Source: a virus (lineage: Duplodnaviria; Caudoviricetes). From it: a DNA stretch of 64,000 nucleotides. Position numbers and translations under genes: made by a program. The notes under the pieces were generated by a model. The model did not search any database, had not been told where the DNA came from, and was given only the letters and a program-made list of their open reading frames with translations. Where the stretch lies: IMG/VR virus record IMGVR_UViG_3300020577_007013. One strand, written 5' to 3'. How positions within the stretch are numbered: the first letter of the stretch is position 1; every line of letters starts with the position of its first letter. This document shows positions 359 to 63,291 of the stretch, in pieces.

Positions 359-589
359 ATGACTCCATATAAAAAATTATTTGAAGCTTCAGATAAAATT
401 TACCTCGATGGCTTAATGAGAGATCTTTGGGATGTTCAAGGTGACATCGAAGATATTGAGACTCAAATGTCTGATGCTAGAAGAGCTAAAGATGACAAAA
501 GACTTAAAGAACTTCATACTGAATTAAGAGAACTTAGAAAAGAGGAATCTGATTTGGAAGACGAAATAAACAAAGAGGAAAATAGATAA
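359..589 (+). CDS. YKxxF(x)E-tagged small coiled-coil protein
   Basis: Start revised to MTPYKKLFEAS with GAGG upstream; K/E-rich heptads. Confidence 0.75.
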   Translation: MTPYKKLFEASDKIYLDGLMRDLWDVQGDIEDIETQMSDARRAKDDKRLKELHTELRELRKEESDLEDEINKEENR

Positions 590-747
590 TGGAACAATAT
601 AAATCAAACTATTTGTCTCTATTCACTCCAAAAGGTGAGACGAAAGTATACATCGAGAGAGACGGACTTTATCTTCCTCCTTCAGTCTTTCCTCCTTATG
701 GAGAAAAATTTGGTACAGTAGATGAGTTAGTGAGGGCATTGGTATGA
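589..747 (+). CDS. 52-aa protein with weak tag (MEQYKSNY); not in ORF track
   Basis: Manual translation; TAATG and ATGA overlaps with both neighbours. Confidence 0.65.
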   Translation: MEQYKSNYLSLFTPKGETKVYIERDGLYLPPSVFPPYGEKFGTVDELVRALV

Positions 748-1151
748 CAAAATATAAACCACTTTTCGAAGATACAGACAAAAAACTGGTCATCAGACTC
801 CATGAACCAAGAAAATACAACGTAGACAATGTCGAAGCGATGTACAAAGAAATGGGTGAGCTGTCAAATTTTTACATAGTCTGGTATGATGATTCAGGAT
901 ATGACGGAGAAGGTGATACTGTCAAGATTTACAAGATGACAGGAGAATGGGAATTTGAAGATGACATTCTTACTTTTCAAGGAACCATGATCGTTAAAGG
1001 AACTGAATGTGATTTTGATGGTAAAGTCATTTCAACAGTTTTTTGGGGTGATTATTCGAACAACCTGAAGCAAGTAACAAAACAAATAAATCAAACCTAT
1101 CAAGAAGAAGGAATCAATTGGTATCTTTGTGAGAAATATGAAATCGTATAA
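744..1151 (+). CDS. tagged hypothetical protein (MTKYKPLFED)
   Basis: ORF plus N-terminal tag. Confidence 0.8.
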   Translation: MTKYKPLFEDTDKKLVIRLHEPRKYNVDNVEAMYKEMGELSNFYIVWYDDSGYDGEGDTVKIYKMTGEWEFEDDILTFQGTMIVKGTECDFDGKVISTVFWGDYSNNLKQVTKQINQTYQEEGINWYLCEKYEIV

Positions 1152-1467
1152 GTCAAAATTCTCCGAAGACTTCAGAACTGAAGAAGTGGATGTCCTAGAA
1201 AAAGTCAAGAGCTTCATTGAATCCTCAGAACAAGTGGGAATGTTTGTTTGCCCTAACAGAGATGAAGCAAAGAAAGTGGTTCTTGAAATTGGATATCCAT
1301 TCGTTTCATCATCAGATTCTGTTCTTGCTTTCGGAAAAATCATCACAGGAAGAAAAACTCATTACGTAGTGGAGCTCAATCCTAAGTCAGACCTACACAA
1401 ATTTTCCAAACTCATGGAAGTGGCTGATGAAAAAGAAATTGAGAAAGTGGTGGTACTCATAGTATGA
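1138..1467 (+). CDS. tagged hypothetical protein (MKSYKSKFSED)
   Basis: Start revised to the tag Met. Confidence 0.8.
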   Translation: MKSYKSKFSEDFRTEEVDVLEKVKSFIESSEQVGMFVCPNRDEAKKVVLEIGYPFVSSSDSVLAFGKIITGRKTHYVVELNPKSDLHKFSKLMEVADEKEIEKVVVLIV

Positions 1468-1727
1468 GTCCTTACAAACCGTTATTTGAAATGGCTATTA
1501 AGCATACTTTCTTAGACACTAAGGTCTCTCCTAAAGAAAAAGCTAAGTTAATCATTAACGATGCGTTAGAGAGATCATTCTATTGGTCTGAGAATGAAGA
1601 AGGAGAGGTCTCAGAAGAAGAGATAAGTCTTGTGAATGCTGAACTTGAAAAACTCGTTGACAAAATAAATTCAAAACTTAGAATCGGTAATATACATTCT
1701 AGAGCTGAAAAGAGAGCAGGAAAATGA
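1464..1727 (+). CDS. tagged hypothetical protein (MSPYKPLFEM)
   Basis: ORF, ATGA coupling, tag. Confidence 0.8.
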   Translation: MSPYKPLFEMAIKHTFLDTKVSPKEKAKLIINDALERSFYWSENEEGEVSEEEISLVNAELEKLVDKINSKLRIGNIHSRAEKRAGK

Positions 1728-2065
1728 TTCGTTATAAACGACTCTTTGAAAGTGGAGGACTCGTAGAAGGTGAGTCAGTCGAGACATTAGGAGTATTGAA
1801 ATATCTCGATGTAGGGAAGATTAGGAATAGACTTCCTAAACTGTACTCCAAAATAAAAAAGATGGATAGACCTATTAAAGTAAGGCAACATGACTGGGTA
1901 GATCCTAAAGGGTCTGACTCGGTGCACAGTCTTGACTTCTTGTCGACTAGTCATATATCCAATGTCGACAATCAAATGGTCTCAATCACATTAGAAAAAG
2001 ATAAAGACTTATATATTCAGTCTAAGCGACTTATATCAAAATTGCTTAATAAGGAAACTCCATGA
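1724..2065 (+). CDS. tagged hypothetical protein (MIRYKRLFES)
   Basis: ORF, ATGA coupling, tag. Confidence 0.8.
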   Translation: MIRYKRLFESGGLVEGESVETLGVLKYLDVGKIRNRLPKLYSKIKKMDRPIKVRQHDWVDPKGSDSVHSLDFLSTSHISNVDNQMVSITLEKDKDLYIQSKRLISKLLNKETP

Positions 2066-2304: not shown

Positions 2305-3220
2305 AGCTAAGGTCGATAAGGCTATAGCAGAGAACCCAGACTTCGAGACCTTAACAATTCCAATAGGGCATTATCTAGATTCTATCTTCGAAAACTTAGA
2401 TCCACGATTTATTAAGAATGACAAACGCTATAGAGATCTAGGTATAGAACCTGAACTCGTTGAATATGATCCCAATATGTCACACTATTACCTTCCATTA
2501 GATGCTCCCTCTTCAATGAGAGAACGATGGAATGGGCTTGAACAAGAAGCAGAAAAAGCTATTGTTGACTTCAGAGAAGAAGTAGAGAAATATATCTTCA
2601 ATAAATATGATGTCTCGTATGCAGGATTTCACGATACAAGACCTTCAAGAGAAGGCTTTAACATGTCACTAATTATACAGAGGAAAAAGAGAATGAAAGA
2701 GAAATATACAAGACTGTTTGAAATGGAGAGACCGACTCCAAGAGCTTCTGAAAAAGAAAAGAAAACTCCAAAGTCTATAGAACTCCCACCTCAAGTAGAA
2801 AGGAATTTACAAAAATTTCTAAGAATGATTGACGAAGTCATCAAACAAAACAGAGACGTAGATGTACTGAAAATTCCAGTGGGAAGACTCTTCGAGTTGG
2901 CTGATAAGGTATATAGAGTCAGTGACATGAAAAGAGAAGATCTTATAAAAGCAGGTATTCCTGACAAGTATCTTAATAAAGATAATAGTCTCAAAGAAAG
3001 AGTTCCTTTGGAAATTTTTGAACATTGGAAAGACCTAAGGGATCTAGCTGGAAAGTATGAGTCAGAAATTAAAAGAAGACTTAAGAAAGAAGCGACTGAC
3101 GCAGGGTGGATTGCTTCAGTAAGTCAGATAGAAGATCACAGTCGATTGGCAGGAATAGAGCATTTAAGAATAAGAGATTCTTATTATTCTGTCACACATT
3201 TAATTCTCAAGAAACCATGA
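2276..3220 (+). CDS. family-A paralog with two domains; internal tag MKEKYTRLFE at 2693 (fusion of two genes)
   Basis: Two copies of the KA..xID..I...IP(I/V)G domain; second half resembles 3217..3729. Confidence 0.75.
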   Translation: MIANLLKKAKAKVDKAIAENPDFETLTIPIGHYLDSIFENLDPRFIKNDKRYRDLGIEPELVEYDPNMSHYYLPLDAPSSMRERWNGLEQEAEKAIVDFREEVEKYIFNKYDVSYAGFHDTRPSREGFNMSLIIQRKKRMKEKYTRLFEMERPTPRASEKEKKTPKSIELPPQVERNLQKFLRMIDEVIKQNRDVDVLKIPVGRLFELADKVYRVSDMKREDLIKAGIPDKYLNKDNSLKERVPLEIFEHWKDLRDLAGKYESEIKRRLKKEATDAGWIASVSQIEDHSRLAGIEHLRIRDSYYSVTHLILKKP

Positions 3221-3729
3221 AAAAATATAATCCACTTTTTGAAATGAGATCTCCTGCTCCTAAAGCTGGACAGATTAAGAAGACCATAGAGCTTCCTCCC
3301 GACATAGAGAACAATTTGAAAAAATGCATTCGTGTCGTAGACGGTGTTCTTAAATACGAGTCTAAAGTTTATTACATACCACTGGACCATTACATAGAGT
3401 CAATACGTCGGAACTTCAATCCCTATTATGTGAAAGACCTCAAGAAGCTCAGTATAGAGGATAATGAAGTGAGTTTCGCCCCCAACTCAGATCATCCATA
3501 TCCTAAAAATGATAAGACCAGAGAGAAGTTTAATAAGCTTGAAATGGAAGCAGATTACTTAACTGAAAAATTTAAAAGCAAATTATCAGGTCATTACATT
3601 AATTACAAGCCCAAATATAATAATGGCTATGTCTATCTTGATGTACCTCGTTACTTAGGTGATCTCAAGAAATGGATACCTGAAGGTAGCAACTATTCTC
3701 TAGTGACTCTTGTATTGGAGAAGCCATGA
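3217..3729 (+). CDS. tagged family-A paralog (MKKYNPLFEM)
   Basis: Start revised; shares IELPP..E.NL.K..R.(I/V)D with 2693-3220. Confidence 0.8.
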   Translation: MKKYNPLFEMRSPAPKAGQIKKTIELPPDIENNLKKCIRVVDGVLKYESKVYYIPLDHYIESIRRNFNPYYVKDLKKLSIEDNEVSFAPNSDHPYPKNDKTREKFNKLEMEADYLTEKFKSKLSGHYINYKPKYNNGYVYLDVPRYLGDLKKWIPEGSNYSLVTLVLEKP

Positions 3730-4064
3730 ACAGGTATAAGCCATTATTCGAGAGTGAAGACTTCGTAAACAAGACCTTTCAGAAGGCTGTGAGAACTATA
3801 GATGGAATACTTGCATCAGACACCGAGAAGCTCATTTGGCTGATACCAATAGGAGCTTTTATATGGACTATTAAAAGACATATCATGAAGACAGGAACAT
3901 CTATCAATGGGACTGAAGATGCAATGTGGAGATTCAAATCTAAGTTAATGAATTACTACGATGCTAAAAATTGGGATTCAACCATTGTTCCTTCCAGAGT
4001 TCCTAAAGATCTCAAACACTTGAGTGCTGGAGTCAACGTTACGTTGGAGCTTACAAGAAGATGA
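3726..4064 (+). CDS. tagged family-A paralog (MNRYKPLFES)
   Basis: QKAVRTIDGI..WLIPIGAF motif. Confidence 0.8.
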   Translation: MNRYKPLFESEDFVNKTFQKAVRTIDGILASDTEKLIWLIPIGAFIWTIKRHIMKTGTSINGTEDAMWRFKSKLMNYYDAKNWDSTIVPSRVPKDLKHLSAGVNVTLELTRR

Positions 4065-4405
4065 ATCGATACAGACCCCTATTCGAGAGTGAACATTCTG
4101 ATAGGATCCTTCAGAAGGCCATTCATACTATTGACAAGATCATAGCCACCGATCCTGACAAAGAAGTATGGAAGATACCAGTAGGTGCTTATGCAAAGTC
4201 GATTGAAATGGAGGTCAGAAAAAATTATAAAGACGGAAATATAAAAGATGCTGTTCAGACTGGAAGACTTCATAAATTTCAGCAAAACCTTATAAAACAC
4301 TATGTTGAAAAAGGATGGTCAGCGATTACCCATAACGGCTTCGATGATCATGATCCCGATCTTAAGCACATGGGTACTGACTATACATTGGTATTAGCAA
4401 AATGA
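4061..4405 (+). CDS. tagged family-A paralog (MNRYRPLFES)
   Basis: QKAIHTIDKI..WKIPVGAY motif. Confidence 0.8.
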   Translation: MNRYRPLFESEHSDRILQKAIHTIDKIIATDPDKEVWKIPVGAYAKSIEMEVRKNYKDGNIKDAVQTGRLHKFQQNLIKHYVEKGWSAITHNGFDDHDPDLKHMGTDYTLVLAK

Positions 4406-4837
4406 AGTACATATCACTATACGAGAACACAGACCCTCTTGTCGATAAGCTTTTAATAAAGTAAAGGGAATTATTGACGAAGAATTGAAGACTAGGGAAG
4501 AAATTACTTTTCCTTTGGTCGCCTTCATAAGATCAATTGAAAGAGCTTACAATCCACATTTCATGCAAGACAAGAGGCTGAAGGAACTCGGTCTCAGTAA
4601 GAATGATCTCGAAGAATATAATCAGGAGTCTCTAATGTAAGCGAGAAAATCGAAAACTTAATATCTAAATCAGGAAGACTTACTCTAGACTTCATAAACA
4701 GACTCACAAAATATTATCGAGAGAAAGGACATGGTCTTGTAGTCTTTGGTTATACGAGTAAAAGATCATTGGATCCAGATTTTAGACCTTATACTGTGAG
4801 CGGAACTGACTCTCAATTCTGCATTACTATACAATGA
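4402..4837 (+). pseudogene. frameshifted family-A paralog of 4834..5298 (two shifts; may be sequencing errors)
   Basis: Three consecutive segments in different frames (MKYISLYENTDPLVDKLL / KVKGIIDEELKTREEITFPL / LTKYYREKG..LDPDFRPY..FCITIQ) align with the next gene. Confidence 0.75.
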
Positions 4838-5298
4838 AAAAGTATAATCCCTTATTCGAGAACGCTGACCCCTACATAGAAAAGCTTCTAGGTAAAGTAA
4901 AGAAGACCATAGACGAAGCCCTTATTACAAGAAAGCGACTTCTGTTTCCAATCTCTTCTTATCTATCGTCTGTCTGGAAGAATTACTCACCTTTTTACAT
5001 GCAGTCTCATAGACTCGAGCAAGTAGGATTCGATCTAGAGTACATCGGATTCGATCTGAAAGATGAGAGATACAATTGGATAAAACCAGAAGCTCCTAAA
5101 TTTCTTCGTCAAAAATGGGATGCTATGCATGAGAATGCCAAGGAAGTGGAGAAATACTTTAGAGAGACTCTTATAAAATACTACAATAATAAAGGCTATC
5201 AAGTTTCTTTACACAATGAGACGAGAAGCTTTCTAGAACCAGAGTTTAGAAAATATGCACTAAGACAAGGATTCAATTTATGCATTCAGATTTCGTAG
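4834..5298 (+). CDS. tagged family-A paralog (MKKYNPLFEN)
   Basis: ORF, tag, family motif. Confidence 0.8.
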   Translation: MKKYNPLFENADPYIEKLLGKVKKTIDEALITRKRLLFPISSYLSSVWKNYSPFYMQSHRLEQVGFDLEYIGFDLKDERYNWIKPEAPKFLRQKWDAMHENAKEVEKYFRETLIKYYNNKGYQVSLHNETRSFLEPEFRKYALRQGFNLCIQIS

Positions 5299-6029: not shown

Positions 6030-6037
6030 TATTTATG
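6025..6037 (+). promoter_or_regulatory. ACTAA-N5-ATG candidate late promoter
   Basis: ACTAATATTTATG; here TAA is also the upstream stop codon. Confidence 0.45.
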
Positions 6038-6973
6038 CTACCATACCGTTTTTCAGAATTATACGAAGCAGTTGCTCCACAACTCAAAGGTAACTACAAA
6101 CAACTGTTTACCGACAGACTCTCTGAAGAGGAGTTTGAGGAATTGGCTAAATCAGTCGGTATCGGAGAACAAGATTACAAGTTTCTCCTTACATTCATAA
6201 ATAACAACCAGACATCTGTCAAAGGAAAGGAGCTTATCTCTGACTTAGAGCAACCTCTGAAAATGTATCTTTCTAAGAACTCAGTTCGAAGTTTAAGTGG
6301 AATGAATCTCGAGACTCTCAAGAAAGATTACGGTTCTGCTAACACGACTAAAGCAGTCGGAGATTCAAGTAAAGAGTTTCAGATAGTTCGTATAGATGAT
6401 GTCAATCAATGTGTCACTCTTACTAAAGACTCTGGATGGTGTGTACAGCAGAAGCATTATGCATCTGACTATCTTTCTAAAGGTCCTCTCTTTCTCATTC
6501 TAAGGAACGGTAAACGGTTCGCTCTTATCTCTTTCCCAACAAAACAATTTATGGATGTTCATGACAATCCACTTAAGAAAAAAGATCTTGATTGGATTGA
6601 CTCACATTGGCCAGACTTTAAATATGAAAGAATGCTTACTGGTAATGGTAGATTCAAAACAAAGCCGTCTGAAGCAGAGCTCAATAAAATGTTCACACTT
6701 AAAAAGGAATGGTATGGTGACCTTAATCTGTCAGGCATTCCTGTTAAAACACTTCCAGAAGGTTTTAAAGTAGACGGTACACTCGACCTTACAGGAACTC
6801 CAATCAAGTCTCTTCCAAAAGGTCTTAAAGCAAATGTACTCAACATACAAGAGACTTCCATATCAGAACTTCCTTCTGACTTAGACGTCGGAATTGTGTA
6901 TGTAGACTTCGGTTCACCAATGGCTGAATTCGAATATGAAAAGCCAGCTAAAGTTCATGAAATCTTGGAGTAA
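6035..6973 (+). CDS. leucine-rich-repeat protein with a central GWCV motif and a variant tag
   Basis: LNLSGIPVKTLPEG / LDLTGTPIKSLPKGL / LNIQETSISELPSDL repeats. Confidence 0.75.
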   Translation: MLPYRFSELYEAVAPQLKGNYKQLFTDRLSEEEFEELAKSVGIGEQDYKFLLTFINNNQTSVKGKELISDLEQPLKMYLSKNSVRSLSGMNLETLKKDYGSANTTKAVGDSSKEFQIVRIDDVNQCVTLTKDSGWCVQQKHYASDYLSKGPLFLILRNGKRFALISFPTKQFMDVHDNPLKKKDLDWIDSHWPDFKYERMLTGNGRFKTKPSEAELNKMFTLKKEWYGDLNLSGIPVKTLPEGFKVDGTLDLTGTPIKSLPKGLKANVLNIQETSISELPSDLDVGIVYVDFGSPMAEFEYEKPAKVHEILE

Positions 6974-7718
6974 ATACAATCGTCTTTTTAAAGAAGACGT
7001 CATCAAAGACTTTACTGATAAGCTAATCAAGAAAGCGATTGCAAAGTTTGATGCATTTATAGCAGAGCATCCAGACAATAAGATTTTTTCATTTAGGCTG
7101 GACCCTTATACGACTTCTATTTTAAAGAATTTTCACTATGACTATAGCAAGCCTGATAGAATCAGAGACAGTTCAGGTCGTCTTGGATTTGCTGCTGATT
7201 CTAAAGCTATGGAAGCTTATTCACGATTTAATGAGACTTTAAGAAAGTACTATGAAGATAAAGGAGACTTCTTTGTACAGGAAGCTGAAGGTGCACCAGC
7301 TAAAGATTCAATAGGTCCTTCATTTCCTAAGTCGACCCACAACTCACTTTTTCCCTATTATCTGAGTGTATCAAGAAAGACTCCCGGTGTAGAAGAGCTC
7401 TTAGATAAAACTGCTAGTAAAGCTATTAAGTATGTGAAAGGATTATTGTCCAAGTATCCAAACACCAAGCTTAAAATTGATATGTCAAAATTCTTCGTCT
7501 TCTTAGAAAAAAATATAGATAATGAGACTACAGAGTATACAGAGACTCTTCACAAGCTACAGATTAAAGTTGAAAAGGCTGTAGGTGGAGAATTTTCTAA
7601 TTGGAATTTTCATTCTCGTAGAAACCTTGAGTTATCAGATTTCAAGACCATAACTGATAGTTCAGGGGTCGAGCCAAGATATTTTGTCACATACTGGCTC
7701 TTTATTGGGGCAAAATGA
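6957..7718 (+). CDS. tagged family-A-like protein (MKSWSKYNRLFKED)
   Basis: DKLIKKAIAKFD..FRLDPY..SI motif; start revised. Confidence 0.7.
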   Translation: MKSWSKYNRLFKEDVIKDFTDKLIKKAIAKFDAFIAEHPDNKIFSFRLDPYTTSILKNFHYDYSKPDRIRDSSGRLGFAADSKAMEAYSRFNETLRKYYEDKGDFFVQEAEGAPAKDSIGPSFPKSTHNSLFPYYLSVSRKTPGVEELLDKTASKAIKYVKGLLSKYPNTKLKIDMSKFFVFLEKNIDNETTEYTETLHKLQIKVEKAVGGEFSNWNFHSRRNLELSDFKTITDSSGVEPRYFVTYWLFIGAK

Positions 7719-7999
7719 AACCTTATAAGAGCAAATTTTCGGAAGCTGAGGAGAATTTGACTACCTCCTACCTCAATCACTTCGTTGACAACGACTCTGA
7801 CATAAGAGAAGATCTCAAGGAATTTGTGAAGAAACATCAAGGCTATATTATATCTATTGGTAACAGGTTTATTGACAAGTATGAAGACCTCGACTACGAC
7901 GATGTCGAAAAGATTATGAGAGCTCTTAAAGAAAGAGTGGAAGCCCAACCTAACCAATTTCCACTCATCGTAAGATTATTTTTTGGAGATGAACTATGA
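7715..7999 (+). CDS. tagged hypothetical protein (MKPYKSKFSE)
   Basis: ORF plus tag. Confidence 0.8.
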   Translation: MKPYKSKFSEAEENLTTSYLNHFVDNDSDIREDLKEFVKKHQGYIISIGNRFIDKYEDLDYDDVEKIMRALKERVEAQPNQFPLIVRLFFGDEL

Positions 8000-8567: not shown

Positions 8568-9803
8568 ATGATCAAACTATTAGCCGGCTTTGTTATAGGA
8601 GCCATCTCTGCTGGGTTCTGGTTCAAGGAAGACGTTGAAGCTCTAATCGAAAAGAAAAGAGTCGTTCAATATGAAAAACAGAAAGAACTTCAAACAATTA
8701 GAGAGGAAGCTCCTAAAGAAGTCTACATCATTCAACCGGATGATTCCCATAGACTTCAAGATTGTACAGACGAAGATTATGAATATCACGGTGGTAGACT
8801 CAAGTCGCATCCATTCATGAAATTTTATGAAGGAAGGAAAGATCCTCTCAACGGTTTCCTTCTTTCAGACAAATCTCCTGTCTACAATTATCTACATGGA
8901 CTTTCGACCCTAGATGATGACACTGTAGTCTTAATGGGCTTCAGAGGAAATACTGCAGGACCTCATAGAAGTAGAGTCACAACAGGACTTGAAAAAATAA
9001 GAGATGAATACAACAATGTCCTTGTCTACATGCCATCCTCATTCTACAATAAAGATGGTACACCAATTGAAGATAAGAAGACTACTCTTCAATCTATCTG
9101 TCATAGAAGACGATATGAAGGAAAGTATATTGGATCTGCTTGGCCAGGAATGAATTATGGTTACAGTTGGAAAGTCTATGACAGACTACTTAAGAATAAA
9201 GCCCATGTCTTTGTGTTCTCATACAGCAATGGTCAAATAGTGAGAGAAGACATTCTTGATACAAAATTTTCTAGAGGATTCAGACCGAACTACGTCTCAA
9301 TAGCAAACTACTTCGAGTTTCTTGAACAATATTCTAAGAGAACTGAATTCATCCGTAAGGACAAAATCCCTTTGCTAGACGGAGCTGTAGACTTCGAAAC
9401 CAATTATTCAGGTGAAAAACCACTTTGGGATTTAGCTAAATTCATCAAGGAACAAGTAGATGGTAATCCTACCAGAATGTACTACGCTGCCTGTGGAATT
9501 GAATCAGTAGTAGCAATCAATCATATTAAACTCATCAAATCATTAGGACTTATTGGTGTAGAGCTTCCTAATGGAGTTGTGAGATACATGAACGATACAA
9601 GAAATGTGATTATAGATGTTCTTACCTTTAACAAGCCAGAGCCTTACGTTTATGCGAACGTGGATCTGATCAAACAGACCACCTTCCTTAAAGACAATAG
9701 AGTTGGAAAGAGACTTTCTCTTGGACACTATATGATAGTGCCTTACGCAGCAGATCAGTTTAAACAGCTTGCTGCTGAGAGAGGCTTGTTAAAATCGAAA
9801 TAG
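8568..9803 (+). CDS. N-terminally membrane-anchored protein, possible alpha/beta-hydrolase
   Basis: Hydrophobic N-terminus; VFSYSNG nucleophile-elbow-like motif; C-terminal GHY. Confidence 0.45.
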   Translation: MIKLLAGFVIGAISAGFWFKEDVEALIEKKRVVQYEKQKELQTIREEAPKEVYIIQPDDSHRLQDCTDEDYEYHGGRLKSHPFMKFYEGRKDPLNGFLLSDKSPVYNYLHGLSTLDDDTVVLMGFRGNTAGPHRSRVTTGLEKIRDEYNNVLVYMPSSFYNKDGTPIEDKKTTLQSICHRRRYEGKYIGSAWPGMNYGYSWKVYDRLLKNKAHVFVFSYSNGQIVREDILDTKFSRGFRPNYVSIANYFEFLEQYSKRTEFIRKDKIPLLDGAVDFETNYSGEKPLWDLAKFIKEQVDGNPTRMYYAACGIESVVAINHIKLIKSLGLIGVELPNGVVRYMNDTRNVIIDVLTFNKPEPYVYANVDLIKQTTFLKDNRVGKRLSLGHYMIVPYAADQFKQLAAERGLLKSK

Positions 9804-10726
9804 TTTCTATATCTCTTTAAAGCCCATTTACCGTAGGACTTAGCATATCGAAGGTCGTCTCTACAGACTGTGTAGACTTGAGCCTCATTGTCGATCATAA
9901 GCATTTTGTAAATAGCAAATGTGTTATGTCCACCAGTATGATAAATAATCCAAACAGTTTTGTTCCATCTATCGAAAAATTTAGCCAATCCACTGTAGAG
10001 TTGTAGGAACTGTTCTCTGTTGGTATACTCATCATCAATTGCATTTGAGACAAAGAGAACCAAATGCTTGGATTCATTTGGGTAGAAGACAGCTTCATGT
10101 AAAAAACTCAATTGAAAGTAAAGTCTCTTTTTCAGATCTGCTCTGATTGAGACAAAGCAGTCTCTTAGATCTTCTTTATGGCAAAAAGATTGCATTCCTC
10201 TATTTACTTCTCCAATCTTCAATTGTCCAATTTTACGTTTCGAATTTGGATTAAGGGAGCTATCGAATTGATAGTGTGCATGAAGTATTCTCCAATCGAT
10301 GTCGATGGAAGTAATAGAAGAACAATTCAGTATGGATGACATCATGTAGACTTGCATGAATCCCACAGTGTAGCATTCTGCAGATTCATGGTCAATTAAT
10401 TTGTCCATTTTTTGAAATGCTTCATAAGCTCTATGGTCGTTGAGCAGGAAAAAATTCAGACAGCCTTTCATAAGTCGATCAACAATCCAATTGACTTTCT
10501 TAAATCTAGGAGCTTTACAATTAATCGACATGTCGAGATATTCGAACAAATCAGAAGGGTGTAAATTTTGATCTCCGATATTATAGAGCTCTCTATGTAA
10601 ATTCGAGACTGTGATCAAAGGTCTTTCGATAGGATCTCTTTCATCTTTGAGATTTATAGGAACGAGCTCTTTAGGAGCTTCAATGCAAGACAAAAACGTG
10701 AACACTAGAATGAAATATTTTACCAT
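9755..10726 (-). CDS. putative lipoprotein
   Basis: MVKYFILVFTFLSC lipobox-like signal. Confidence 0.6.
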   Translation of the reverse strand: MVKYFILVFTFLSCIEAPKELVPINLKDERDPIERPLITVSNLHRELYNIGDQNLHPSDLFEYLDMSINCKAPRFKKVNWIVDRLMKGCLNFFLLNDHRAYEAFQKMDKLIDHESAECYTVGFMQVYMMSSILNCSSITSIDIDWRILHAHYQFDSSLNPNSKRKIGQLKIGEVNRGMQSFCHKEDLRDCFVSIRADLKKRLYFQLSFLHEAVFYPNESKHLVLFVSNAIDDEYTNREQFLQLYSGLAKFFDRWNKTVWIIYHTGGHNTFAIYKMLMIDNEAQVYTVCRDDLRYAKSYGKWALKRYRNYFDFNKPLSAASCLN

Positions 10727-10742: not shown

Positions 10743-10994
10743 ATGCATGAATACAAGAGTAAATTCGCTGAAGATGTACCTGGACTCGTAACTCGAGAAA
10801 ACGATGTTCTCAAAGATAAAATCGGGAATGTCCAAAAGACGCTCGATACAATGTACTATGATATGGTGGAGATCCTTTCTGACACCCAAGAGATCGAAGC
10901 TTCTGAGTTCTTAGCAACAGTGCTTAAGAAATATAGAGACACATCAAATGATTTAAGGCGAATACTCGCAGAAATTAAGAGGAGCATAGACTAA
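10743..10994 (+). CDS. tagged helical protein (MHEYKSKFAED)
   Basis: Start revised; preceded by ACTAT-N6. Confidence 0.75.
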   Translation: MHEYKSKFAEDVPGLVTRENDVLKDKIGNVQKTLDTMYYDMVEILSDTQEIEASEFLATVLKKYRDTSNDLRRILAEIKRSID

Positions 10995-10999: not shown

Positions 11000-11989
11000 A
11001 TGGCAAAGTATAAATCTTTCTTCTCGGAGACGATCGTTTCCGATAAAAAATCAGACGAGTCAGATTCAACACTCGCAAAAGAACGTCAACCGAAACTATT
11101 TGATAAAATCGGAAGCACTGAAGACGAAGAGAACCTCAATTCCATATCACTCTCCTACGGTAGCACCAAAGACGCTACTGACAAGAAGTTCAATGGCAAA
11201 CTTGGAGAAGATACATCCAAAATTAAGTCAATGATAAAAAATGCAATTGGCGCTGACTTCGAGAAAGACTTCAATGATCATCCTAAACTCCCAGTAATCC
11301 CTGAACTCGACACTAAGCAACTCGGCAAATCCTTCTCTATTAAAGAGACTTATAAACCATTCTTTGAATCAGAAGTTCTCGATAGTGAAGATGACATAAA
11401 GAATCAAGAGAAACAAAAACTTCTCGGCTCAATGCATCCTGAAGTTATGTCACCTGAAAAAATCCATACTGACAACGTCGAGATCTCTTATGGCTACACT
11501 CATGAGACACCATACGGAGATCATCCAGTTAACTCTCCTGAAGAAGCTGCAACAGACCCCGTTGACGCAACTGATGAAGACTTTGACGGTAGACTTAATG
11601 AGGAACTTGTTGATGATACTCATTCTACAGTGAAACGTGCTATCAACTCAGATTTCTCTGACAACAAAGATTATAACAAAATCAAGAAGCTTCCAGATGC
11701 TCCTAAGTTTGGAGACAAAAAGAAGAGCAAGAAAAATGAATCTACTCTTGCCTACTTACAAACCAATTTTCGGAGTCTAATGAACCGGTATAAGAGCAAA
11801 TTTCAAGAGAACGATTTCGATGATGAGATCGAAGTAGATGCAGAAGAGTTCATAGGAAAAATTAAAAGACTAGATGATGAGGTCTCTGAATTTCCTACAG
11901 AGCAACTGTCTAATGAAAAACAAGAGGAGCTTAAAGAAGCACTAGAAGGTCTGAAATTTTCAATAGATCAAGCATTGGAGATGCTTTAA
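11000..11989 (+). CDS. acidic protein with three tags and an internal duplication
   Basis: YKSFFSE, YKPFFES, MNRYKSKFQE; repeated SYG..DATD..F.G.L.E..AI..DF..KLP. Confidence 0.8.
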   Translation: MAKYKSFFSETIVSDKKSDESDSTLAKERQPKLFDKIGSTEDEENLNSISLSYGSTKDATDKKFNGKLGEDTSKIKSMIKNAIGADFEKDFNDHPKLPVIPELDTKQLGKSFSIKETYKPFFESEVLDSEDDIKNQEKQKLLGSMHPEVMSPEKIHTDNVEISYGYTHETPYGDHPVNSPEEAATDPVDATDEDFDGRLNEELVDDTHSTVKRAINSDFSDNKDYNKIKKLPDAPKFGDKKKSKKNESTLAYLQTNFRSLMNRYKSKFQENDFDDEIEVDAEEFIGKIKRLDDEVSEFPTEQLSNEKQEELKEALEGLKFSIDQALEML

Positions 11990-12177
11990 TGAAAGCTTAT
12001 AAATCTAAATTCCAAGAAGCAGAGCAAATAGAAAGCAGAGAGAAAGATGCAGTATTGTTTGCTGATAAATGGGCCAAACGTATTAGAAAAGAGATCACCG
12101 ATCTTCATTTTTTCGATCATAAATCTATGAGAAAATTTTCAGATATGGTCGGATCCTATTTAAAGGAAATGGTCTAA
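11989..12177 (+). CDS. tagged small protein (MKAYKSKFQE)
   Basis: ORF plus tag. Confidence 0.8.
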   Translation: MKAYKSKFQEAEQIESREKDAVLFADKWAKRIRKEITDLHFFDHKSMRKFSDMVGSYLKEMV

Positions 12178-12521
12178 TGGAAAGCTATAAGTCAAAGTTC
12201 CAAGAAGCTGAAACAGCCGATCAAGAATTCGGTCAGGAAGAGACAGCTCTTCGTAATTTCAACGCTATCAGAGGTCAGATACCTTTTCCATTAGGCTCTA
12301 TGGTGAGAGTCGTTTTCGGTGATAAAGGATTTCAGTCTGACTTCGTCGGTAAGTTCAAACTCTCTGGTGGAATGATCACAATTCTTGGCAAGAAAAATGA
12401 CTCACAAAAGTTCATGGCCAATAGAATGAAAGACATCATGGTTGATCAAATCAACTTGAGCTTTAAGATTCGTTGCAGTGCGACATACAATATACCAGTA
12501 CAAATCCATGAAGAAATATAA
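12177..12521 (+). CDS. tagged hypothetical protein (MESYKSKFQE)
   Basis: ORF plus tag. Confidence 0.8.
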   Translation: MESYKSKFQEAETADQEFGQEETALRNFNAIRGQIPFPLGSMVRVVFGDKGFQSDFVGKFKLSGGMITILGKKNDSQKFMANRMKDIMVDQINLSFKIRCSATYNIPVQIHEEI

Positions 12522-19067: not shown

Positions 19068-19080
19068 ACTAATTTGTATG
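19068..19080 (+). promoter_or_regulatory. ACTAA-N5-ATG candidate late promoter at a divergent start
   Basis: ACTAATTTGTATG; no SD. Confidence 0.6.
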
Positions 19081-41665: not shown

Positions 41666-41678
41666 ACTAAATTGTATG
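41666..41678 (+). promoter_or_regulatory. ACTAA-N5-ATG candidate late promoter
   Basis: ACTAAATTGTATG at a divergent start. Confidence 0.6.
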
Positions 41679-54733: not shown

Positions 54734-55013
54734 ACGCTTTGATTGAATCCCCTAGAGATTTTCTAAGTTTTTTCATATTGTCGAGATCGAGAATAATTGT
54801 GTCAAACTCACCGTAGCGAGATTTATGACCAATAAGAAACTTGACAGCAAGAACAAGCCTATGCCAGAATGTATGACCATTGAGGTGAATATTGAGATAG
54901 ATCTCCTTTTCTTCCCATTCACTATAATCAACTGGCTTAGTGATTATAAGCTGATGGGAAGTGTCTTCACAGTTACAGACAAAGAGTTCGTGATCGAAGA
55001 TCTTAGTCCTCAT
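54714..55013 (-). CDS. conserved phage protein (C.C....H; FW.RL..A.K..G..S.YG.FD)
   Basis: Start revised to MRTKIF. Confidence 0.65.
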   Translation of the reverse strand: MRTKIFDHELFVCNCEDTSHQLIITKPVDYSEWEEKEIYLNIHLNGHTFWHRLVLAVKFLIGHKSRYGEFDTIILDLDNMKKLRKSLGDSIKAYESDRK

Positions 55014-56193
55014 CTTCATCCTCCGGTTGTTCTTCATTTTCTTCTTCAATTTTCTCAAGTCCTTTAGCTAGAACGTCTTGAAGAAACTCTTGAGTATTGA
55101 CATCTCCTGGATTCCAGCTCACATTAGAGTTCTGTTTGTGAGAGTCTTTGTAGAATTGTACCACATTCTGAAGAGATTTTTTCAGAGACATTTTGTAGAC
55201 GATATGATTGACGAGAATTTGAATGACACCGTCTATCGGCATTCCTTTGTAATCTTTCACGATTATGTTGAGAACTTCGTCAGTGATGGAGGGAAGCTTC
55301 TTTCTGATAATCGTCTTGTAAGCTTCTGCATCAACCTCATCGACACGAATACGATGACGAATTCTTCCTGGTCTTCTGATAAGAGAATCAGAAAGACGGA
55401 GAGTATTGTTCGTAGTGTAGAGTGTCATGACTCCGTTGAGAGGAACAGGACCGGCAAGAAAGCTGCTTAAAGTTTTGTCATTGTAACGGATTTTATCGAG
55501 TTCATCTATGAGAAGAAGGATGTTTGAGTCTGTGTCATTCGACCTTATGAAGTCTACAGCTGTCTGAAACAGATCTGGAGTCTTACACCAAATCGCAATT
55601 CCACCACGTTTGATAAAATGCTTTGAAGCAGCTGAAGCAAGAGTTGTTTTACCTGTACCAGGAGGACCGTCTAAGATGACTCCTTCATGATGAGAAACAC
55701 CGATTTGTTTGTATTTGTCTTTATTGTCGAAGAAGTTATCCATAATTGAGACGAGATGCTTGTAGTTCTCAGTCTCAGTAAAGTCGACTTCATCATCTTC
55801 TAAGGTAAGTAGGTAAGGTTGAGGGGCCAATCCTCCTGTGAAGTTCAACTCATAAATTCCAGGAACTACTAAGTCTCTCTTTTCACCTGGATTAAATCCT
55901 AAATGAAATTCAGCTCCTCTTTGAAAGTATCCTGATCCTTCAGAAGGTCTTGTCCCTGTCAATTGAATAAAATTTTTCTGAAAGTCTCTTCCCCAATTCC
56001 AGAGATTATTCTCATGTTCAGATGGCTTTTTATTGTCAGCGATCTTCAGTGTAGCATGGTACTTGCTGCCTCTGTGAAAATCAACACATTCGAGAACCTT
56101 ATATCCGAAGACATAAGTCATTTCCTTGTTCCAACCGTCTTGAAGTTCTTGTGGACCTATGTAAATGTATTTTGCACCTTTTGTAAATTTCAT
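55003..56193 (-). CDS. AAA+ ATPase
   Basis: GPPGTGKT, LLIDELD, TTN, RPGR. Confidence 0.9.
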   Translation of the reverse strand: MKFTKGAKYIYIGPQELQDGWNKEMTYVFGYKVLECVDFHRGSKYHATLKIADNKKPSEHENNLWNWGRDFQKNFIQLTGTRPSEGSGYFQRGAEFHLGFNPGEKRDLVVPGIYELNFTGGLAPQPYLLTLEDDEVDFTETENYKHLVSIMDNFFDNKDKYKQIGVSHHEGVILDGPPGTGKTTLASAASKHFIKRGGIAIWCKTPDLFQTAVDFIRSNDTDSNILLLIDELDKIRYNDKTLSSFLAGPVPLNGVMTLYTTNNTLRLSDSLIRRPGRIRHRIRVDEVDAEAYKTIIRKKLPSITDEVLNIIVKDYKGMPIDGVIQILVNHIVYKMSLKKSLQNVVQFYKDSHKQNSNVSWNPGDVNTQEFLQDVLAKGLEKIEEENEEQPEDEDED

Positions 56194-56382: not shown

Positions 56383-56596
56383 AAATTTCCCAATCAGTTC
56401 TCTCTAAGTCTTTTAACCTTAAAGTAAGATCTGCAAACTCATGTCCATACTGCTTTAGTCCATCATTCTTTTCATAGAATGTATCGAGAGTTTTGTCATA
56501 TCCGACTCTATAATGTCTCTTGACAAGGAATTCATCATTAGGGTGATGTATCTCTCCACCATTTTTTAAATGGTCTATAAAGTCTGAGAGTCTCAT
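56369..56596 (-). CDS. hypothetical protein
   Basis: ORF track; ends DL...DWE. Confidence 0.65.
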   Translation of the reverse strand: MRLSDFIDHLKNGGEIHHPNDEFLVKRHYRVGYDKTLDTFYEKNDGLKQYGHEFADLTLRLKDLERTDWEIYETK

Positions 56597-56823
56597 TCAC
56601 AAGGTCCTAGATAAGTTGTTTCTTCACCGAGACTCATATATTCTTTTCCATGTTTACGGTCACAGACAGTAACAATGTAACGTCGATACCAACTAGGTGT
56701 GTCGTGTCTTTCCATAGAGAATCTTCCATTCTCTATTTTGTCTTTAGTGATTGCTCCTGAATTGCTTACATGACACTCACAATTTGAAAGTATCAAACAA
56801 AGAAATGGTAATAATTTTTTCAC
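56593..56823 (-). CDS. putative lipoprotein
   Basis: MKKLLPFLCLILSNC. Confidence 0.65.
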   Translation of the reverse strand: MKKLLPFLCLILSNCECHVSNSGAITKDKIENGRFSMERHDTPSWYRRYIVTVCDRKHGKEYMSLGEETTYLGPCE

Positions 56824-58583: not shown

Positions 58584-59657
58584 TTAGCAGTTGACTATCC
58601 TTCCTTCAGTAGAGAAACTGCAAGTTCCTCTATGCAAAATATTGATGGCAGCATTGTGATCTGCGTCCATCTCGATCCCACAAACACATTTATAAAGTTC
58701 TCCTTTACGGTTCTCTTTATCAACGGTTCCACAATTTGAACAAGTCTGGCTTGTATAAGCTGCTTCGACTTTCTGAAAAAGAAAACCTTTCTCTTCAGAA
58801 AGTCTCTCTAGCTTACCTAGAGCTTGTCTGTAACTCCAATATTGCAATTTATTTAAAGATTTCGTTGAGAGCTTTGATTTATGCTTGACATTCTTGAGGT
58901 CTTCAACAAAAAGCTCTTTTGGTTGGGTCTGCTTTTCAAATTCATTGCAGACTCTATTGATCTCATTTTTCTTATGGACATTCAGTCGTTTGAATTTTTT
59001 GCTTCCTCTTTTCTTTTTTGAGAGTCTGAGGTAGAAGTCTTCGAGATTTTTTCCATGAAAATTTCCTTCTGAATCTGAAATTAGCTTTTTGTACCCGATA
59101 TCAATTCCGATCGTCGGTCCATCTGTCCTTTCAATTTTTTCAGATTTTTCCCAAAAAAGTTGAACATAATAATTGTTATTATTTTTTATAATCTGAAAAG
59201 TCTTTTTTAAAGTCCAACCATTCTCTGAGTATTTTCTCGAATGTCTATGAAATTTAATTGGAAGGAATATTTTTGATTTAATTTTCATTCCATAAGGAAG
59301 TCTGACCCTAAAAAACCCATCGAAATCTTCTGTCTTTTCTTCTAGAAAGTCTACGGAATATAGATCAATCAAAACTTTTTTTACTTTTGGATAATTGTAT
59401 CCTTCCGGATCTTTCGAGAGACAAGATCTGACAATTCCAGAAGCTTGTTTATAAGTCTTTGTGAGCCATCTAGAGTCTCTAAAGACTTTTCCTTCTAAAT
59501 TTTTGGAACTAGCTAATTTCTTAGTTGAAATTACATCGGTCCACATTAGGTGAATCATACTCTGCAATTCGACTTTGTAGTCTTCGAAAAGTCTATCAAG
59601 CCACTTCAGTTTTCCTTTATTGGCGAATTTGAGAGTATGTCTAGAAGTACGAATCAT
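58584..59657 (-). CDS. tnpB: RNA-guided endonuclease TnpB (second subfamily, solo)
   Basis: GIDIG, VEDL, YTSQTCS.CG..C.CG, DAD.NAA.NI. Confidence 0.9.
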   Translation of the reverse strand: MIRTSRHTLKFANKGKLKWLDRLFEDYKVELQSMIHLMWTDVISTKKLASSKNLEGKVFRDSRWLTKTYKQASGIVRSCLSKDPEGYNYPKVKKVLIDLYSVDFLEEKTEDFDGFFRVRLPYGMKIKSKIFLPIKFHRHSRKYSENGWTLKKTFQIIKNNNNYYVQLFWEKSEKIERTDGPTIGIDIGYKKLISDSEGNFHGKNLEDFYLRLSKKKRGSKKFKRLNVHKKNEINRVCNEFEKQTQPKELFVEDLKNVKHKSKLSTKSLNKLQYWSYRQALGKLERLSEEKGFLFQKVEAAYTSQTCSNCGTVDKENRKGELYKCVCGIEMDADHNAAINILHRGTCSFSTEGRIVNC

Positions 59658-59664
59658 CTATATT

Positions 59665-61073: not shown

Positions 61074-61504
61074 AACACTTCCTTGAGGACTCTTCTTAAA
61101 TTCTTCGGGCAGTAGTCTTCGATATCTTTAATCTTACAAAACATAAATCTATCAAACTCAAGAACCTTATCACCATTGTCTCTATTAAAGAATGATTTGC
61201 ACTTAAGCTTAGAAAGATCGATTTCTTCTTTGAGGTCTTTAAAATTGATTCTGTAAAGAAATAGGTCTTTGTGTTTGTTAAGCTCGTGTTGTCCCACGAC
61301 TTCAAAACGTTTTCTATTGAAAGCTAATCCAGTTTCTTCAAGAAGCTCACGTTCAGCTGTCTCTATGTTTGACTCACCTTCTTCTTGACGTCCTTTAGGA
61401 ATATCCCAATTTTTAGTTCCTGTTGCATGTCCTAACAGAATGTATTTCCCATCTGTCAGAATCGTTCCTACAGAAAGTTGCTTGAATTTAGGTTTATATT
61501 TCAT
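61070..61504 (-). CDS. NUDIX hydrolase (T4 NudE-like)
   Basis: WDIPKG...EGES..ETAEREL.EETG. Confidence 0.9.
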   Translation of the reverse strand: MKYKPKFKQLSVGTILTDGKYILLGHATGTKNWDIPKGRQEEGESNIETAERELLEETGLAFNRKRFEVVGQHELNKHKDLFLYRINFKDLKEEIDLSKLKCKSFFNRDNGDKVLEFDRFMFCKIKDIEDYCPKNLRRVLKEVL

Positions 61505-62310
61505 ATTGCCTTAGGACACATCTTATTGTATGCGCAAAATTTGCAAGTCGTTTCTTCAGGAGTGTACTCGATATTTCCTTCATTTGCTAGCTTGATCTTC
61601 TCAGTGAGACTTGAGATCTTTTCATCGATATATGAAAACCTATCCTTCTGAATCTCATGATGATTCTTAAGAAATGAGTCTTCCTTAGAGGATTGAGCAT
61701 AATAAGTAAATGAGTGAACCTTCTGTTTGAGATTTTTCTTGACTAGATACTCATACATAATACTTTGGAAATCTTTCTCGAAGTCTTTGTGAAGAAATTT
61801 GTCAAGGTTAGCTGTTGTCTTATAGTCAAAGATTCTGTATGTCCCGTCTTTCAACTCTACAAGAAGGTCAATGGTTCCGTCAAGAGAGTAGTCTGTATTG
61901 TAGTCTGATTTGAGATTCGTTTCAGGATGGAGAGTTTTCCAATCTTCTTTCCTCAAGTCTAAGAGAACTTCCTTGATAAGATTCAGAGTTCGAAGATTCC
62001 CTTCATGTAAGAAGGTCTCTTTATTGTAATATCTCGTTCTCTGAAATTTACCGTCTCTAGCTACTTGTTTTTCAAGTTCAGTGTCAAAAAGTTTTGCAAA
62101 GCCACCGTCCACTTTAATGAGAACTTCTCTATCAGAAGCTCCACTATTTTTGATCACCATCGCAGTTTCAGCGACTGAATGTGCAATTGAACCGAATAAA
62201 GTTCCTGGCCAAATTATCCAAGGAACCTTAATCTTCTGAATGTCTGAATAGTAGAATTGTCCGAAACATGACTCAATCTTGTTGAGTCGACTTTGAGATA
62301 GTGTGAGCAA
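61501..62310 (-). CDS. PD-(D/E)XK RecB-family / Cas4-like exonuclease
   Basis: LSQS.L...C; GS..H; GTIDL..IFDYKT; Q...Y; CxxC.Y...C. Confidence 0.85.
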   Translation of the reverse strand: MLTLSQSRLNKIESCFGQFYYSDIQKIKVPWIIWPGTLFGSIAHSVAETAMVIKNSGASDREVLIKVDGGFAKLFDTELEKQVARDGKFQRTRYYNKETFLHEGNLRTLNLIKEVLLDLRKEDWKTLHPETNLKSDYNTDYSLDGTIDLLVELKDGTYRIFDYKTTANLDKFLHKDFEKDFQSIMYEYLVKKNLKQKVHSFTYYAQSSKEDSFLKNHHEIQKDRFSYIDEKISSLTEKIKLANEGNIEYTPEETTCKFCAYNKMCPKAI

Positions 62311-62360
62311 CTTCGGTTCCTTAGTAGAATTTACTATCTAAGGTATAATAAGGAAAAAAG

Positions 62361-62891
62361 CTATTTCCGATATTTGCTAATCGTCTTAGCTCTTTTTATT
62401 TTCTTTGCAGGAGAGTTTTTCTTAGGTTTGGGTTCAGGTTTCACAGGCTTCACTGGTTCAGGTTCTACAACAGGTTCGATTTCTCTAGGTTTGTAAGTTT
62501 TCTGAACTCTCAAGCTGTCGGGATTTTCATCAATGTACTTTACGAAGTTCATCATCTTTCCCTTGTCTACAGCTCTCATCTTTTTCCATTTAGCATTGAG
62601 CAGAGGGTTATTAAATTCTGATTGGAGGATTTCAGTAAAAGTCAGACCTTTCTGACCTGAGTTATTTTCGTAGTATTTCTTCACTTGCTTGAGATAATCA
62701 ACAAAGTTTGCCCAGCCTCTACCTTTGAGGTAGTCTTCGTCTTTGTTGTACTTTGCAATGAGAGGAATTAAATAGTTAGAGAGACCGTTGGTGAGAGCGA
62801 CTTCGAGAAGTGTCGTGGTTTTACCACCAATTGTCTTAGTGGTAAGCATGTTTTTAGGTTGAGAGAAGAAGGATTTATAACGTTCTGCCAT
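62361..62891 (-). CDS. tagged protein with Pro/Lys-rich tail (MAERYKSFFSQ)
   Basis: ORF plus tag. Confidence 0.75.
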   Translation of the reverse strand: MAERYKSFFSQPKNMLTTKTIGGKTTTLLEVALTNGLSNYLIPLIAKYNKDEDYLKGRGWANFVDYLKQVKKYYENNSGQKGLTFTEILQSEFNNPLLNAKWKKMRAVDKGKMMNFVKYIDENPDSLRVQKTYKPREIEPVVEPEPVKPVKPEPKPKKNSPAKKIKRAKTISKYRK

Positions 62892-62892
62892 C

Positions 62893-63291
62893 TTAATACT
62901 TCTGATCCTCGCTATTGTATAGCTGGAACTCTGTGTCAGTCTTCATTCTTCGAAGTGGCACATAGTATTTGTAATCATCCGTTTGGGTTACTTGTTTTTT
63001 ATGGATTCTCTTAAGATCGAATAGAACATCGAGATCATACATTTTGACAGCTTTAGAGATTTCAGTATCATACTGACTTCCACCGACTACCTGTATGCAA
63101 AGACCTTTGCTAGGAATCTGTGTCATATAAACGTCTCTTACTTTGATTCCTCTGCTCTTGAGATACTCCGAAATAAGTGGAATTTTTTCTTCAAGAGTTC
63201 TATCATCTTCGAGTCTATCTGAAGCTCTATCAGCTGGAAGATTGTCATGAGCCGTAAACTCTTGGAATTTTGATTTGTAGGGAGTGATCAT
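62893..63291 (-). CDS. tagged hypothetical protein (MITPYKSKFQE)
   Basis: ORF plus tag. Confidence 0.8.
   Translation of the reverse strand: MITPYKSKFQEFTAHDNLPADRASDRLEDDRTLEEKIPLISEYLKSRGIKVRDVYMTQIPSKGLCIQVVGGSQYDTEISKAVKMYDLDVLFDLKRIHKKQVTQTDDYKYYVPLRRMKTDTEFQLYNSEDQKY

Follow-up and report, generated by a model that had tools for sequence, protein, structure and literature searches.

A short N-terminal tag on about thirty otherwise unrelated proteins of a large uncultured phage, a candidate capsid-targeting leader

We analyzed a stretch of 64,000 nucleotides from the IMG/VR virus record IMGVR_UViG_3300020577_007013 (Duplodnaviria; Caudoviricetes), hereafter the window, in which about 30 proteins open with one short tag, M-x-x-Y-K-x-x-F-(x)-E. 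The tag is real: it is non-random and positional. Judging from its sequence, we favor the reading that it would be a portable leader for capsid targeting and processing, equivalent to the capsid-targeting sequence (CTS) of phage T4, and we put the probability of this reading at roughly 0.58. Because the tag is built like the T4 head-loading tag that is cut after Glu, the tagged proteins are probably head cargo on an unusually large scale. With similar confidence, somewhat better than even odds, we regard this putative cargo as a fast-changing set of about 30 proteins in the window, including a GNAT acetyltransferase, a nucleotidyltransferase and a DUF5661 protein. The principle is already known from T4 and from the variable internal protein (IP) loci of T-even phages (PMC3012670). 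What is new here is the consensus, the scale (about 30 carriers per 64 kb, enzymes included), the spread over lineages of 28-40% G+C content (GC) and the C-terminal copies; the literature searched contains no described system of this scale.

A positional, protein-level tag

The initial annotation listed 29 open reading frames (ORFs) of the window as opening with a common tag, and all 29 (62-329 aa) were confirmed, with the general form M-x(0-5)-Y-[KRNQTE]-x-x-F-(x)-E. A strict regular expression (M within 6 residues, then Y[KRNQ]xxFx?E, with ORFs of 40 aa or longer) returns 27 N-terminal matches in the window, whereas 50 shuffles average 0.02 and never exceed 1. The same expression applied to 80 other phage loci bearing T4-type RNA ligase 1 (Rnl1; 1.44 Mb) returns a single match, which is spurious. 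Chance or an annotation artefact is ruled out as the origin of the tag by the shuffles and by these 80 loci. Elsewhere in the six frames, the core motif has just 4 matches, of which 3 lie within real ORFs.

Two sub-forms of the tag are found, Y-x-x-[LFI]-F-E (n=14) and Y-K-S-x-F-x-E (n=15). They differ by a one-residue indel between paralogues, as in MSPYKPLFE-M of gene 1464 (genes are named by their start in the window) and MTLYKSLFVEM of its paralogue in a relative with 91% identity to the window (L112), indicating that the two forms interconvert by such an indel. Tyr is residue 4 in 23 of the 29 tags and Phe stands at +4 from it in 28. The closing residue, P1 of the presumed cleavage site, is Glu in 28 tags, Gln in one and Asp in none, while P3 is Leu, Phe or Ile in all 29. 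Four ORFs depart from the list as first drawn up: 6957 has its Tyr at residue 7, 25711 reads Y-E-S-F-Y-E, 62891 ends in Gln and 19034 (-) starts with GTG. Internal copies were detected at aa 118 (ETYKPFFESE) and aa 264 (MNRYKSKFQE) of the 11000-11989 protein and at aa 73 of the 25881-26399 protein.

Alignment of the tagged proteins bears out the earlier observation that similarity stops at the Glu, and BLASTP of the bodies joins only 3217 with 4834, and 3726 with 4061 and 6957. As proposed at the outset, the tag is a modular, mostly N-terminal, protein-level label on unrelated proteins. An AlphaFold model of the DUF5661 protein places residues 1-20 outside the fold with low confidence, includes a short helix at residues 5-9 and begins the fold at about residue 22. 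The tag could in principle be a relic of common descent, the functionless N-terminus of one old family whose bodies have diverged beyond recognition. Two small paralogue groups and one pseudogene copy do attest to local duplication, but a relic would make a 10-residue disordered end the most conserved part of these proteins, ahead of the GNAT, nucleotidyltransferase, DUF5661 and methyltransferase-like folds. Given also that the same domains occur without the tag elsewhere (for example, P0136) and that Pfam already indicates unrelated folds for four of the bodies, we consider this explanation very improbable.

Comparison of codons indicates that the peptide, rather than the underlying DNA, is conserved. 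The fixed residues of the tag are encoded by varying codons (TAT/TAC, AAA/AAG, TTT/TTC, GAA/GAG, Ser by both TCN and AGY, and five Leu codons), which removes a nucleotide motif as the main explanation. In nine orthologue pairs between the window and its relatives of 91-96% identity, the first ten codons carry 19 synonymous and 5 non-synonymous changes, and all 5 of the latter fall at variable positions, none at Tyr, Phe or Glu; we therefore conclude that selection acts on the peptide. The nucleotidyltransferase gene 19034 (-) keeps both its GTG start and its tag in a relative, with five synonymous changes. A nucleotide-level start signal (a translation enhancer, a leaderless-mRNA element or a recombination linker), with the peptide as a by-product, has in its favor that tagged genes are ordered differently among relatives. 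In the same vein, the conserved CTS-coding DNA of T-even phages may aid cassette exchange at IP loci. Such a signal is nevertheless hard to reconcile with synonymous sites that are free to vary around fixed Tyr, Phe and Glu, with Ser drawn from both codon families, with the 19:5 ratio between orthologues and with the persistence of the tag from 28% to 40% GC. It was rejected as largely refuted by the codon variation, and we give it next to no weight.

The tag is common to several phage lineages (28-40% GC), with the label kept while the cargo shuffles. Several JGI samples contain relatives of the window at 91-96% identity. In a more distant relative (L116, about 65%), tags are kept on two orthologues, the gene order differs and the intervening nucleotidyltransferase is absent, from which it follows that the label is conserved while the labelled genes come, go and move. 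More distant carriers were reached with a profile of the DUF5661 protein searched against 1.84 billion representatives. Among the 150 best matches, which were examined, the majority are without a tag and several 50%-identity clusters are tagged (MKPYKSIFRE, MKPYKSLFSE, MKKYKPKFTE, MSNVYRSRFQE, MKKYKLFIE and MKYKHVFIE). One contig (L200; JGI 3300045333, 40% GC) has three N-tagged genes and many ACTAA-N6/7-ATG starts, an arrangement described below for the window. In another (L198; NCBI GCA_046128215.1, 28% GC), adjoining unrelated genes are tagged MERYKKRFKE, MKKYKPKFTE (a DUF5661 protein that also has an internal copy) and MERYKRKLQE.

Other searches gave no carriers outside the lineage. DNA patterns for M-x-x-YKSKFQE gave one match at each of 1 IMG/VR and 14 JGI metagenome loci; this is the background level, as no second tagged ORF was found near any match that heads an ORF. 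A related-locus search with one tagged protein returned nothing, and a search of 5.8 billion proteins with a profile of the 40 N-terminal residues retrieved, at E<=10, only window proteins and near relatives. No tags were found near Rnl1 in the 80 IMG/VR loci or in three relatives of 50-60% (four loci: L017, L109-L111).

Likeness to the T4 leader and competing explanations

In T4 (NC_000866), the leaders read MKTYQEFIAE (IPII/IPIII), MAKINELLRE (gp24), MLKEQLIAE (gp22), MNEPQLLIE (gp21), MEGLIE (gp67) and MLLIPE (gp68). For IPIII to enter the head, its first ten residues are enough: positions 4 and 7 serve targeting, and positions 8 and 10 processing (PMC9026906). The prohead protease gp21 cleaves after L/I-x-E, and Asp at position 10 blocks processing without blocking targeting (PMC9026906). 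At such sites gp21 also trims short N-terminal propeptides from IPI, Alt, gp24, gp22, gp67 and gp68. The likeness to the T4 CTS suggested by the initial annotation extends to the layout, which matches residue by residue. More specifically, at the sequence level both are N-terminal leaders of 9-10 residues that stand ahead of unrelated folds on unrelated proteins, with an aromatic residue at 4, a hydrophobic one at 7/8 (P3) and a P1 Glu that is never Asp. Tyr4 and Phe8, together with Leu7 in one sub-form, would lie on one helix face, comparable to Tyr4/Phe7/Ile8 of T4, and a P3 Leu or Phe fits the L/I-x-E rule of gp21. The two differ in consensus (Y-K-S-x-F-x-E or Y-x-x-L-F-E here), in number (about 30 carriers in 64 kb versus a handful in T4) and in the carriers themselves, which here include enzymes and acidic proteins besides small basic ones.

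The arrangement also resembles the variable IP loci of T-even phages, where diverse defence-countering proteins share only the CTS (PMC3012670): in both, fast-changing cargo genes carry one conserved leader, and order and content vary among close relatives (PMC3012670). Here the scale is larger, with several islands over the genome, and the tagged proteins scanned have no internal-protein family match in PHROGs or Pfam (not every ORF was scanned in both libraries). Giant phages provide another comparison. In phiKZ, 201phi2-1 and SPN3US, gp21-like proteases cut after S/A-x-E, and as in our candidate system dozens of head proteins, with paralogue families, undergo Glu-specific maturation (PMC9026906, PMC5694885). 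Their propeptides, however, mostly exceed 100 residues and have no common short consensus described (PMC9026906, PMC5694885), whereas one 10-residue tag is used here. T4 head proteins used as queries had no match in the window or in L025, part of the 20 kb upstream of the window.

A direct link to T4-type leaders comes from the tagged protein L200:16517-17140 (MHPYVRLFE), which belongs to phrog_14016 and contains the LDYGAGKYGRN motif typical of class I methyltransferases. Its residues 21-194 are 46% identical to KVP40.0066, with homologues in about 50 KVP40-like vibriophages. KVP40.0066 starts with MKQFCNFLAE and the adjoining KVP40.0065 with MLGNFDSFLSE, and both genes directly follow those for gp24 (head vertex) and gp55 (late sigma). 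Thus, by sequence, one protein family appears to carry a T4-type leader in the T4-like KVP40 and a Y-K-type tag in L200, at the same place. The two KVP40 proteins, annotated as hypothetical, differ from ours in that their leader is T4-type and not Y-K-type, and only two such ORFs were seen over the initial 50 kb of that genome. In the papers searched, nothing records KVP40.0066 as a component of the virion.

Relatives of the DUF5661 protein likewise point to the head. In Synechococcus phage B3, the homologue lies between two terminase genes, and in Vibrio phage VPs20 DUF5661 is fused within a DUF2213 protein that adjoins a DUF2184 gene; we take DUF2213 and DUF2184 to be head-assembly and capsid families. 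In Flavobacterium phage immuto, the DUF5661 homologue and its neighbour start with MKKSQLRQIIKE and MKKLIRIVE, both ending I-x-E. With their hydrophobic-x-Glu leaders, these two adjacent immuto proteins, gp079 and gp080, and KVP40.0065 and KVP40.0066 are candidate CTS-bearing head proteins. Taken together, the modularity of the tag, the KVP40 link, the occurrence of DUF5661 relatives in head modules and the lack of a tagged RNA-repair, nucleotide or DNA enzyme suggest a head-loading leader.

From these likenesses we infer docking, Glu cleavage, late synthesis, packaging and injection. The tagged proteins would be made during prohead assembly, and the leader would dock them on the scaffolding core through Tyr4 and Phe8, which would share one face of a short helix (i, i+4). 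A Glu-specific prohead protease of the T4 gp21 type would then cut after the invariant Glu and free the mature proteins inside the head, from where they would enter the next cell along with the DNA.

A different use of the same peptide would be as a docking short linear motif for one common partner outside the head core (another component of the virion, a hub or chaperone of the phage, or a host protein), with no proteolytic removal. Copies of the tag away from the N-terminus fit this possibility, both at the C-terminus (a protein of 391 aa in L200 and one of 603 aa in L198) and internally (the 11000-11989 protein and the L198 DUF5661 protein). So does a second, C-terminal tag, Y-K-x-K-[VL]-x-x-L-L, on another set of small proteins in the same phage, which suggests a wider use of peptide docking motifs. 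A plain binding helix should, however, accept Asp in place of Glu, whereas Glu closes 28 tags and Asp none. The fixed spacing, with Tyr at residue 4 and the end at 9 or 10, agrees with a protease site, as does the phi-x-E ending, and the KVP40 homologue has a T4-type leader. On balance we consider a docking motif without cleavage rather unlikely.

The C-terminal helix tag just mentioned is exemplified by ...EYKEKLLQIL*, ...EYKEKLLAIL* and ...DYKDRVSSLL*. It is found at 20793-28188 (-) and 50880-51110 (-) of the window (n=8) and on at least 12 proteins in the upstream L024/L025. None of its carriers is also N-tagged, and both tags start with Y-K-x-K-hydrophobic.

The tag could also act as an N-terminal degron that times the destruction of its carriers by an AAA+/ClpP machine of phage or host. 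Within the tagged island, at 16098-17036 (+), lies an untagged gene encoding a serine protease of the ClpP fold, with its Ser in FAASMAA and its His in LHH; this gene is kept in the relatives L112-L114, and the window has an AAA+ ATPase gene at 55003-56193. The 16098-17036 protein is extended by 100 aa at the N-terminus, which begins like a signal peptide and so suggests export; ClpP is, moreover, also encoded by the T4-like KVP40, so that its presence is not special. An N-degron or ClpXP tag needs a free N-terminus, and this is at odds with the intact copies that stand internally or C-terminally in proteins of the window, L198 and L200. To our knowledge the tag is also unlike the N-motifs of ClpX, and we consider a degron improbable.

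Several points weigh against a head-loading leader. Homology with the T4 CTS cannot be established from ten residues, and we infer the packaging of KVP40.0066 from sequence. Small orphan genes strung together in long operons also typify early host-takeover regions. Tag-like copies stand at the C-terminus of large proteins without an N-terminal tag, in L200:17133-18308 (391 aa, ...PYKPLFERSK*) and L198:11029-12840 (603 aa, ...DYKFKFGE*), and the motif thus need not be a removable N-terminal leader. Finally, the ACTAA-N5/6-ATG arrangement that heads tagged units also precedes the untagged genes 8568, 13831, 32444 (a homing endonuclease), 50874 (-) (T5 A1-like) and 22384 (-). As a separate observation, the L198 603-aa protein stops exactly at the Glu, resembling a cut-off tag left attached.

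Tagged genes and their surroundings

On the + strand, the tagged genes form tightly coupled operons at 0.36-20.1 kb and 41.7-43.3 kb, with a single gene at 25.7 kb; the - strand has a pair at 62.4-63.3 kb and one gene at 18.4-19.0 kb. The window itself begins within a tagged gene (L024:9210-9554) whose start (MTPYKKIFKE) lies 47 nt before it and whose 3' part occupies 1-297 (+), and another tagged gene (MYNRLFSE) is found 2.2 kb upstream. None of the 37 genes in 43.6-62.3 kb carries the tag, nor does any of about 20 recognizable RNA-repair, nucleotide or DNA enzymes in the window or any protein with a lipoprotein-like N-terminus. None of the 29 tagged proteins has a transmembrane-like segment. 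The tagged blocks are on the same strand as an upstream tail-fibre-like gene and on the strand opposite to the RNA-repair genes.

The first tagged block (all +) opens with 359-589 (76 aa, MTPYKKLFE) and 589-747 (52 aa), the latter headed by a weak, degenerate variant, MEQYKSNYLSLF. These are followed by 744-1151 (135 aa, MTKYKPLFE), 1138-1467 (109 aa, MKSYKSKFSE), 1464-1727 (87 aa, MSPYKPLFE; L112 paralogue MTLYKSLFVE), 1724-2065 (113 aa, MIRYKRLFE) and 2062-2304 (80 aa, MRYKSFFRE), which has only weak matches of coiled-coil type. The paralogue groups come next: 3217-3729 (170 aa, MKKYNPLFE) is a weak paralogue of 4834-5298 (154 aa, also MKKYNPLFE), and 4061-4405 (114 aa, MNRYRPLFE) is a paralogue both of 3726-4064 (112 aa, MNRYKPLFE) and of 6957-7718 (253 aa, MKSWSKYNRLFKE, with Tyr at residue 7). 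What had been listed as a weak tagged ORF at 4402 proved to be the 20-codon head (MKYISLYEN) of a frameshifted pseudogene copy of the adjoining 4834-5298, readable in three frames over 4402-4833 (+), and this copy points to gene birth and death within the tagged island.

Farther along the same strand, 6035-6973 (312 aa) carries a weak variant, MLPYRFSELYE, behind ACTAA-N5-ATG, and 7715-7999 (94 aa) and 10743-10994 (83 aa) are tagged MKPYKSKFSE and MHEYKSKFAE. The largest tagged protein, 11000-11989 (329 aa, MAKYKSFFSE), is acidic (net -26) and again has ACTAA-N5-ATG upstream; a tblastn search with it against phage records gave no match. It is followed by 11989-12177 (62 aa, MKAYKSKFQE) and 12177-12521 (114 aa, MESYKSKFQE), then by 14310-15011 (233 aa, MTPYKSKFQE), a basic protein (net +15) with a loose tag-like YRAWIE at its C-terminus, and by 15008-15289 (93 aa, MTPYKSRFTE). 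Gene 17235-17570 (111 aa, MRPYRSLFE) has an orthologue tagged MNKYKRLFE in L116.

Only three tagged proteins of the window are recognized by Pfam, and the others are orphans. The protein at 17557-18411 (+; 284 aa, MKKYRSLFE) has a GNAT acetyltransferase domain at residues 49-122. The one at 18390-19034 (-; 214 aa, GTG start, (M)DRYTRIFE) is an AbiEii/MNT-like nucleotidyltransferase from about residue 13, and that at 19078-19329 (+; 83 aa, MNPYKSLFTE) has DUF5661 at residues 36-82 and an ACTAA-N5-ATG start, also present in L116. The ESM Atlas had no usable match for two tagged proteins. The remaining carriers are, on the + strand, 19329-20084 (251 aa, MYRSYFTE), 25711-25941 (76 aa, variant tag MERYESFYE, ACTAA-N6-ATG upstream), 41676-41921 (81 aa, MYKSFFE, ACTAA-N5-ATG upstream), 41914-42432 (172 aa, MLRYQKLFE) and 42419-43345 (308 aa, MTPYKSLFQE). 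On the - strand, they are 62361-62891 (176 aa, variant tag MAERYKSFFSQ, with Gln for Glu) and 62893-63291 (132 aa, MITPYKSKFQE, ACTAA-N6-ATG upstream).

The initial annotation placed the tagged genes almost only in ACTAA islands. This held in that six tagged units (6035, 11000, 19078, 25711, 41676 and 63291 (-)) are preceded by ACTAA-N5/6-ATG; it failed as an exclusive association, the untagged genes named above having the element too. The corresponding ACTAA positions are 6025, 8558, 10990, 13820, 19068, 25700, 32434 and 41666 (+) and 63302, 50884 and 22395 (-). The pentamer occurs 38 and 44 times on the two strands of the window, about three-fold less often than expected (about 115), and in several cases its TAA is the stop codon of the upstream gene. 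In four short divergent intergenic regions, ACTAA is the sole conserved element, at the position of a -10 box for a leaderless mRNA, and L116 keeps it though the remaining spacer differs. The start codons 5-6 nt after ACTAA are without a Shine-Dalgarno (SD) sequence, and TATAAT-N5/6-ATG is found at comparable places in the more distant Rnl1 relatives L017, L109 and L111; together these suggest that ACTAA is an alternative -10-like element of leaderless mRNAs. Upstream tail-fibre-like genes have SD-like sites instead of ACTAA. Scans for sigma-70 promoters and terminators performed no better than shuffles. The large ACTAA-headed proteins of L200 have no PHROGs match, and two that were tried have no sequence match in the PDB.

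The phage is large and uncultured: proteins of the window are found on a contig of 253,865 bp (about 254 kb), and the window sequence is also present in the Logan assembly SRR32380193. When 40 kb of the window were compared with 50,697 phage records by megablast, there was no DNA-level match, and no close cultured phage was found. The window encodes the T4-type RNA ligase 1 (40545-41645, -), RNA ligase 2 and an RlaP nucleotidyltransferase. Also encoded are a polynucleotide kinase, a Thg1-like enzyme, a CCA-adding-type enzyme and a T5 A1-like metallophosphatase, and further genes are those for the AAA+ ATPase (55003-56193), the homing endonuclease and three TnpB proteins. The TnpB genes (OrfB_IS605 / Cas12f-like TNB) lie at 12680-13816 (+), 58584-59657 (-) and 63350-64000 (-). 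In L112, a tagged paralogue of gene 1464 replaces the TnpB gene 12680-13816 together with gene 13831. Lipoprotein-like signal peptides (ending ...FSC, ...LSC, ...SNC or ...MNC) are found in 44726-45211, 48714-48905, 56593-56823, 29874-30143 and 9755-10726 (all -) and hint at a Bacteroidota or spirochaete host. Cellular Rnl1 homologues in GTDB genomes are cyanobacterial and chromosomal only, at no more than 45% identity, the nearest being from filamentous cyanobacteria (43-45%).

What a head-loading label would mean

More tentatively, at somewhat less than even odds, at least three lineages of uncultured large phages (28-40% GC) may share one 10-residue address-and-cut label, M-x-x-Y-K-x-x-F-x-E, by which an exchangeable library of 30-40 proteins, enzymes included, would be loaded into heads and passed on along with the DNA, as a T4-CTS-like system enlarged about ten-fold. 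The tag-like ends ...YKFKFGE-COOH and ...PYKPLFERSK-COOH would then be built-in, non-released copies that compete for the docking site or organize it. If the leader reading is true, so short, conserved and portable a tag could readily be used to package foreign proteins in large capsids, as the T4 CTS already has been.

T4, KVP40, immuto and the tag-bearing phages have their own phi-x-Glu leaders on the same protein family. As far as these N-termini can tell, this suggests that the loading of heads by means of leaders has a longer history and a broader distribution in large myoviruses than the T-even phages reveal. Should the tag indeed address proteins to the head, the injected arsenal of this phage could be read from its genome: about 30-40 proteins, most of them orphans, which would be at work within the first seconds of infection. 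New functions in anti-defence and host takeover would then naturally be sought among the tagged proteins.

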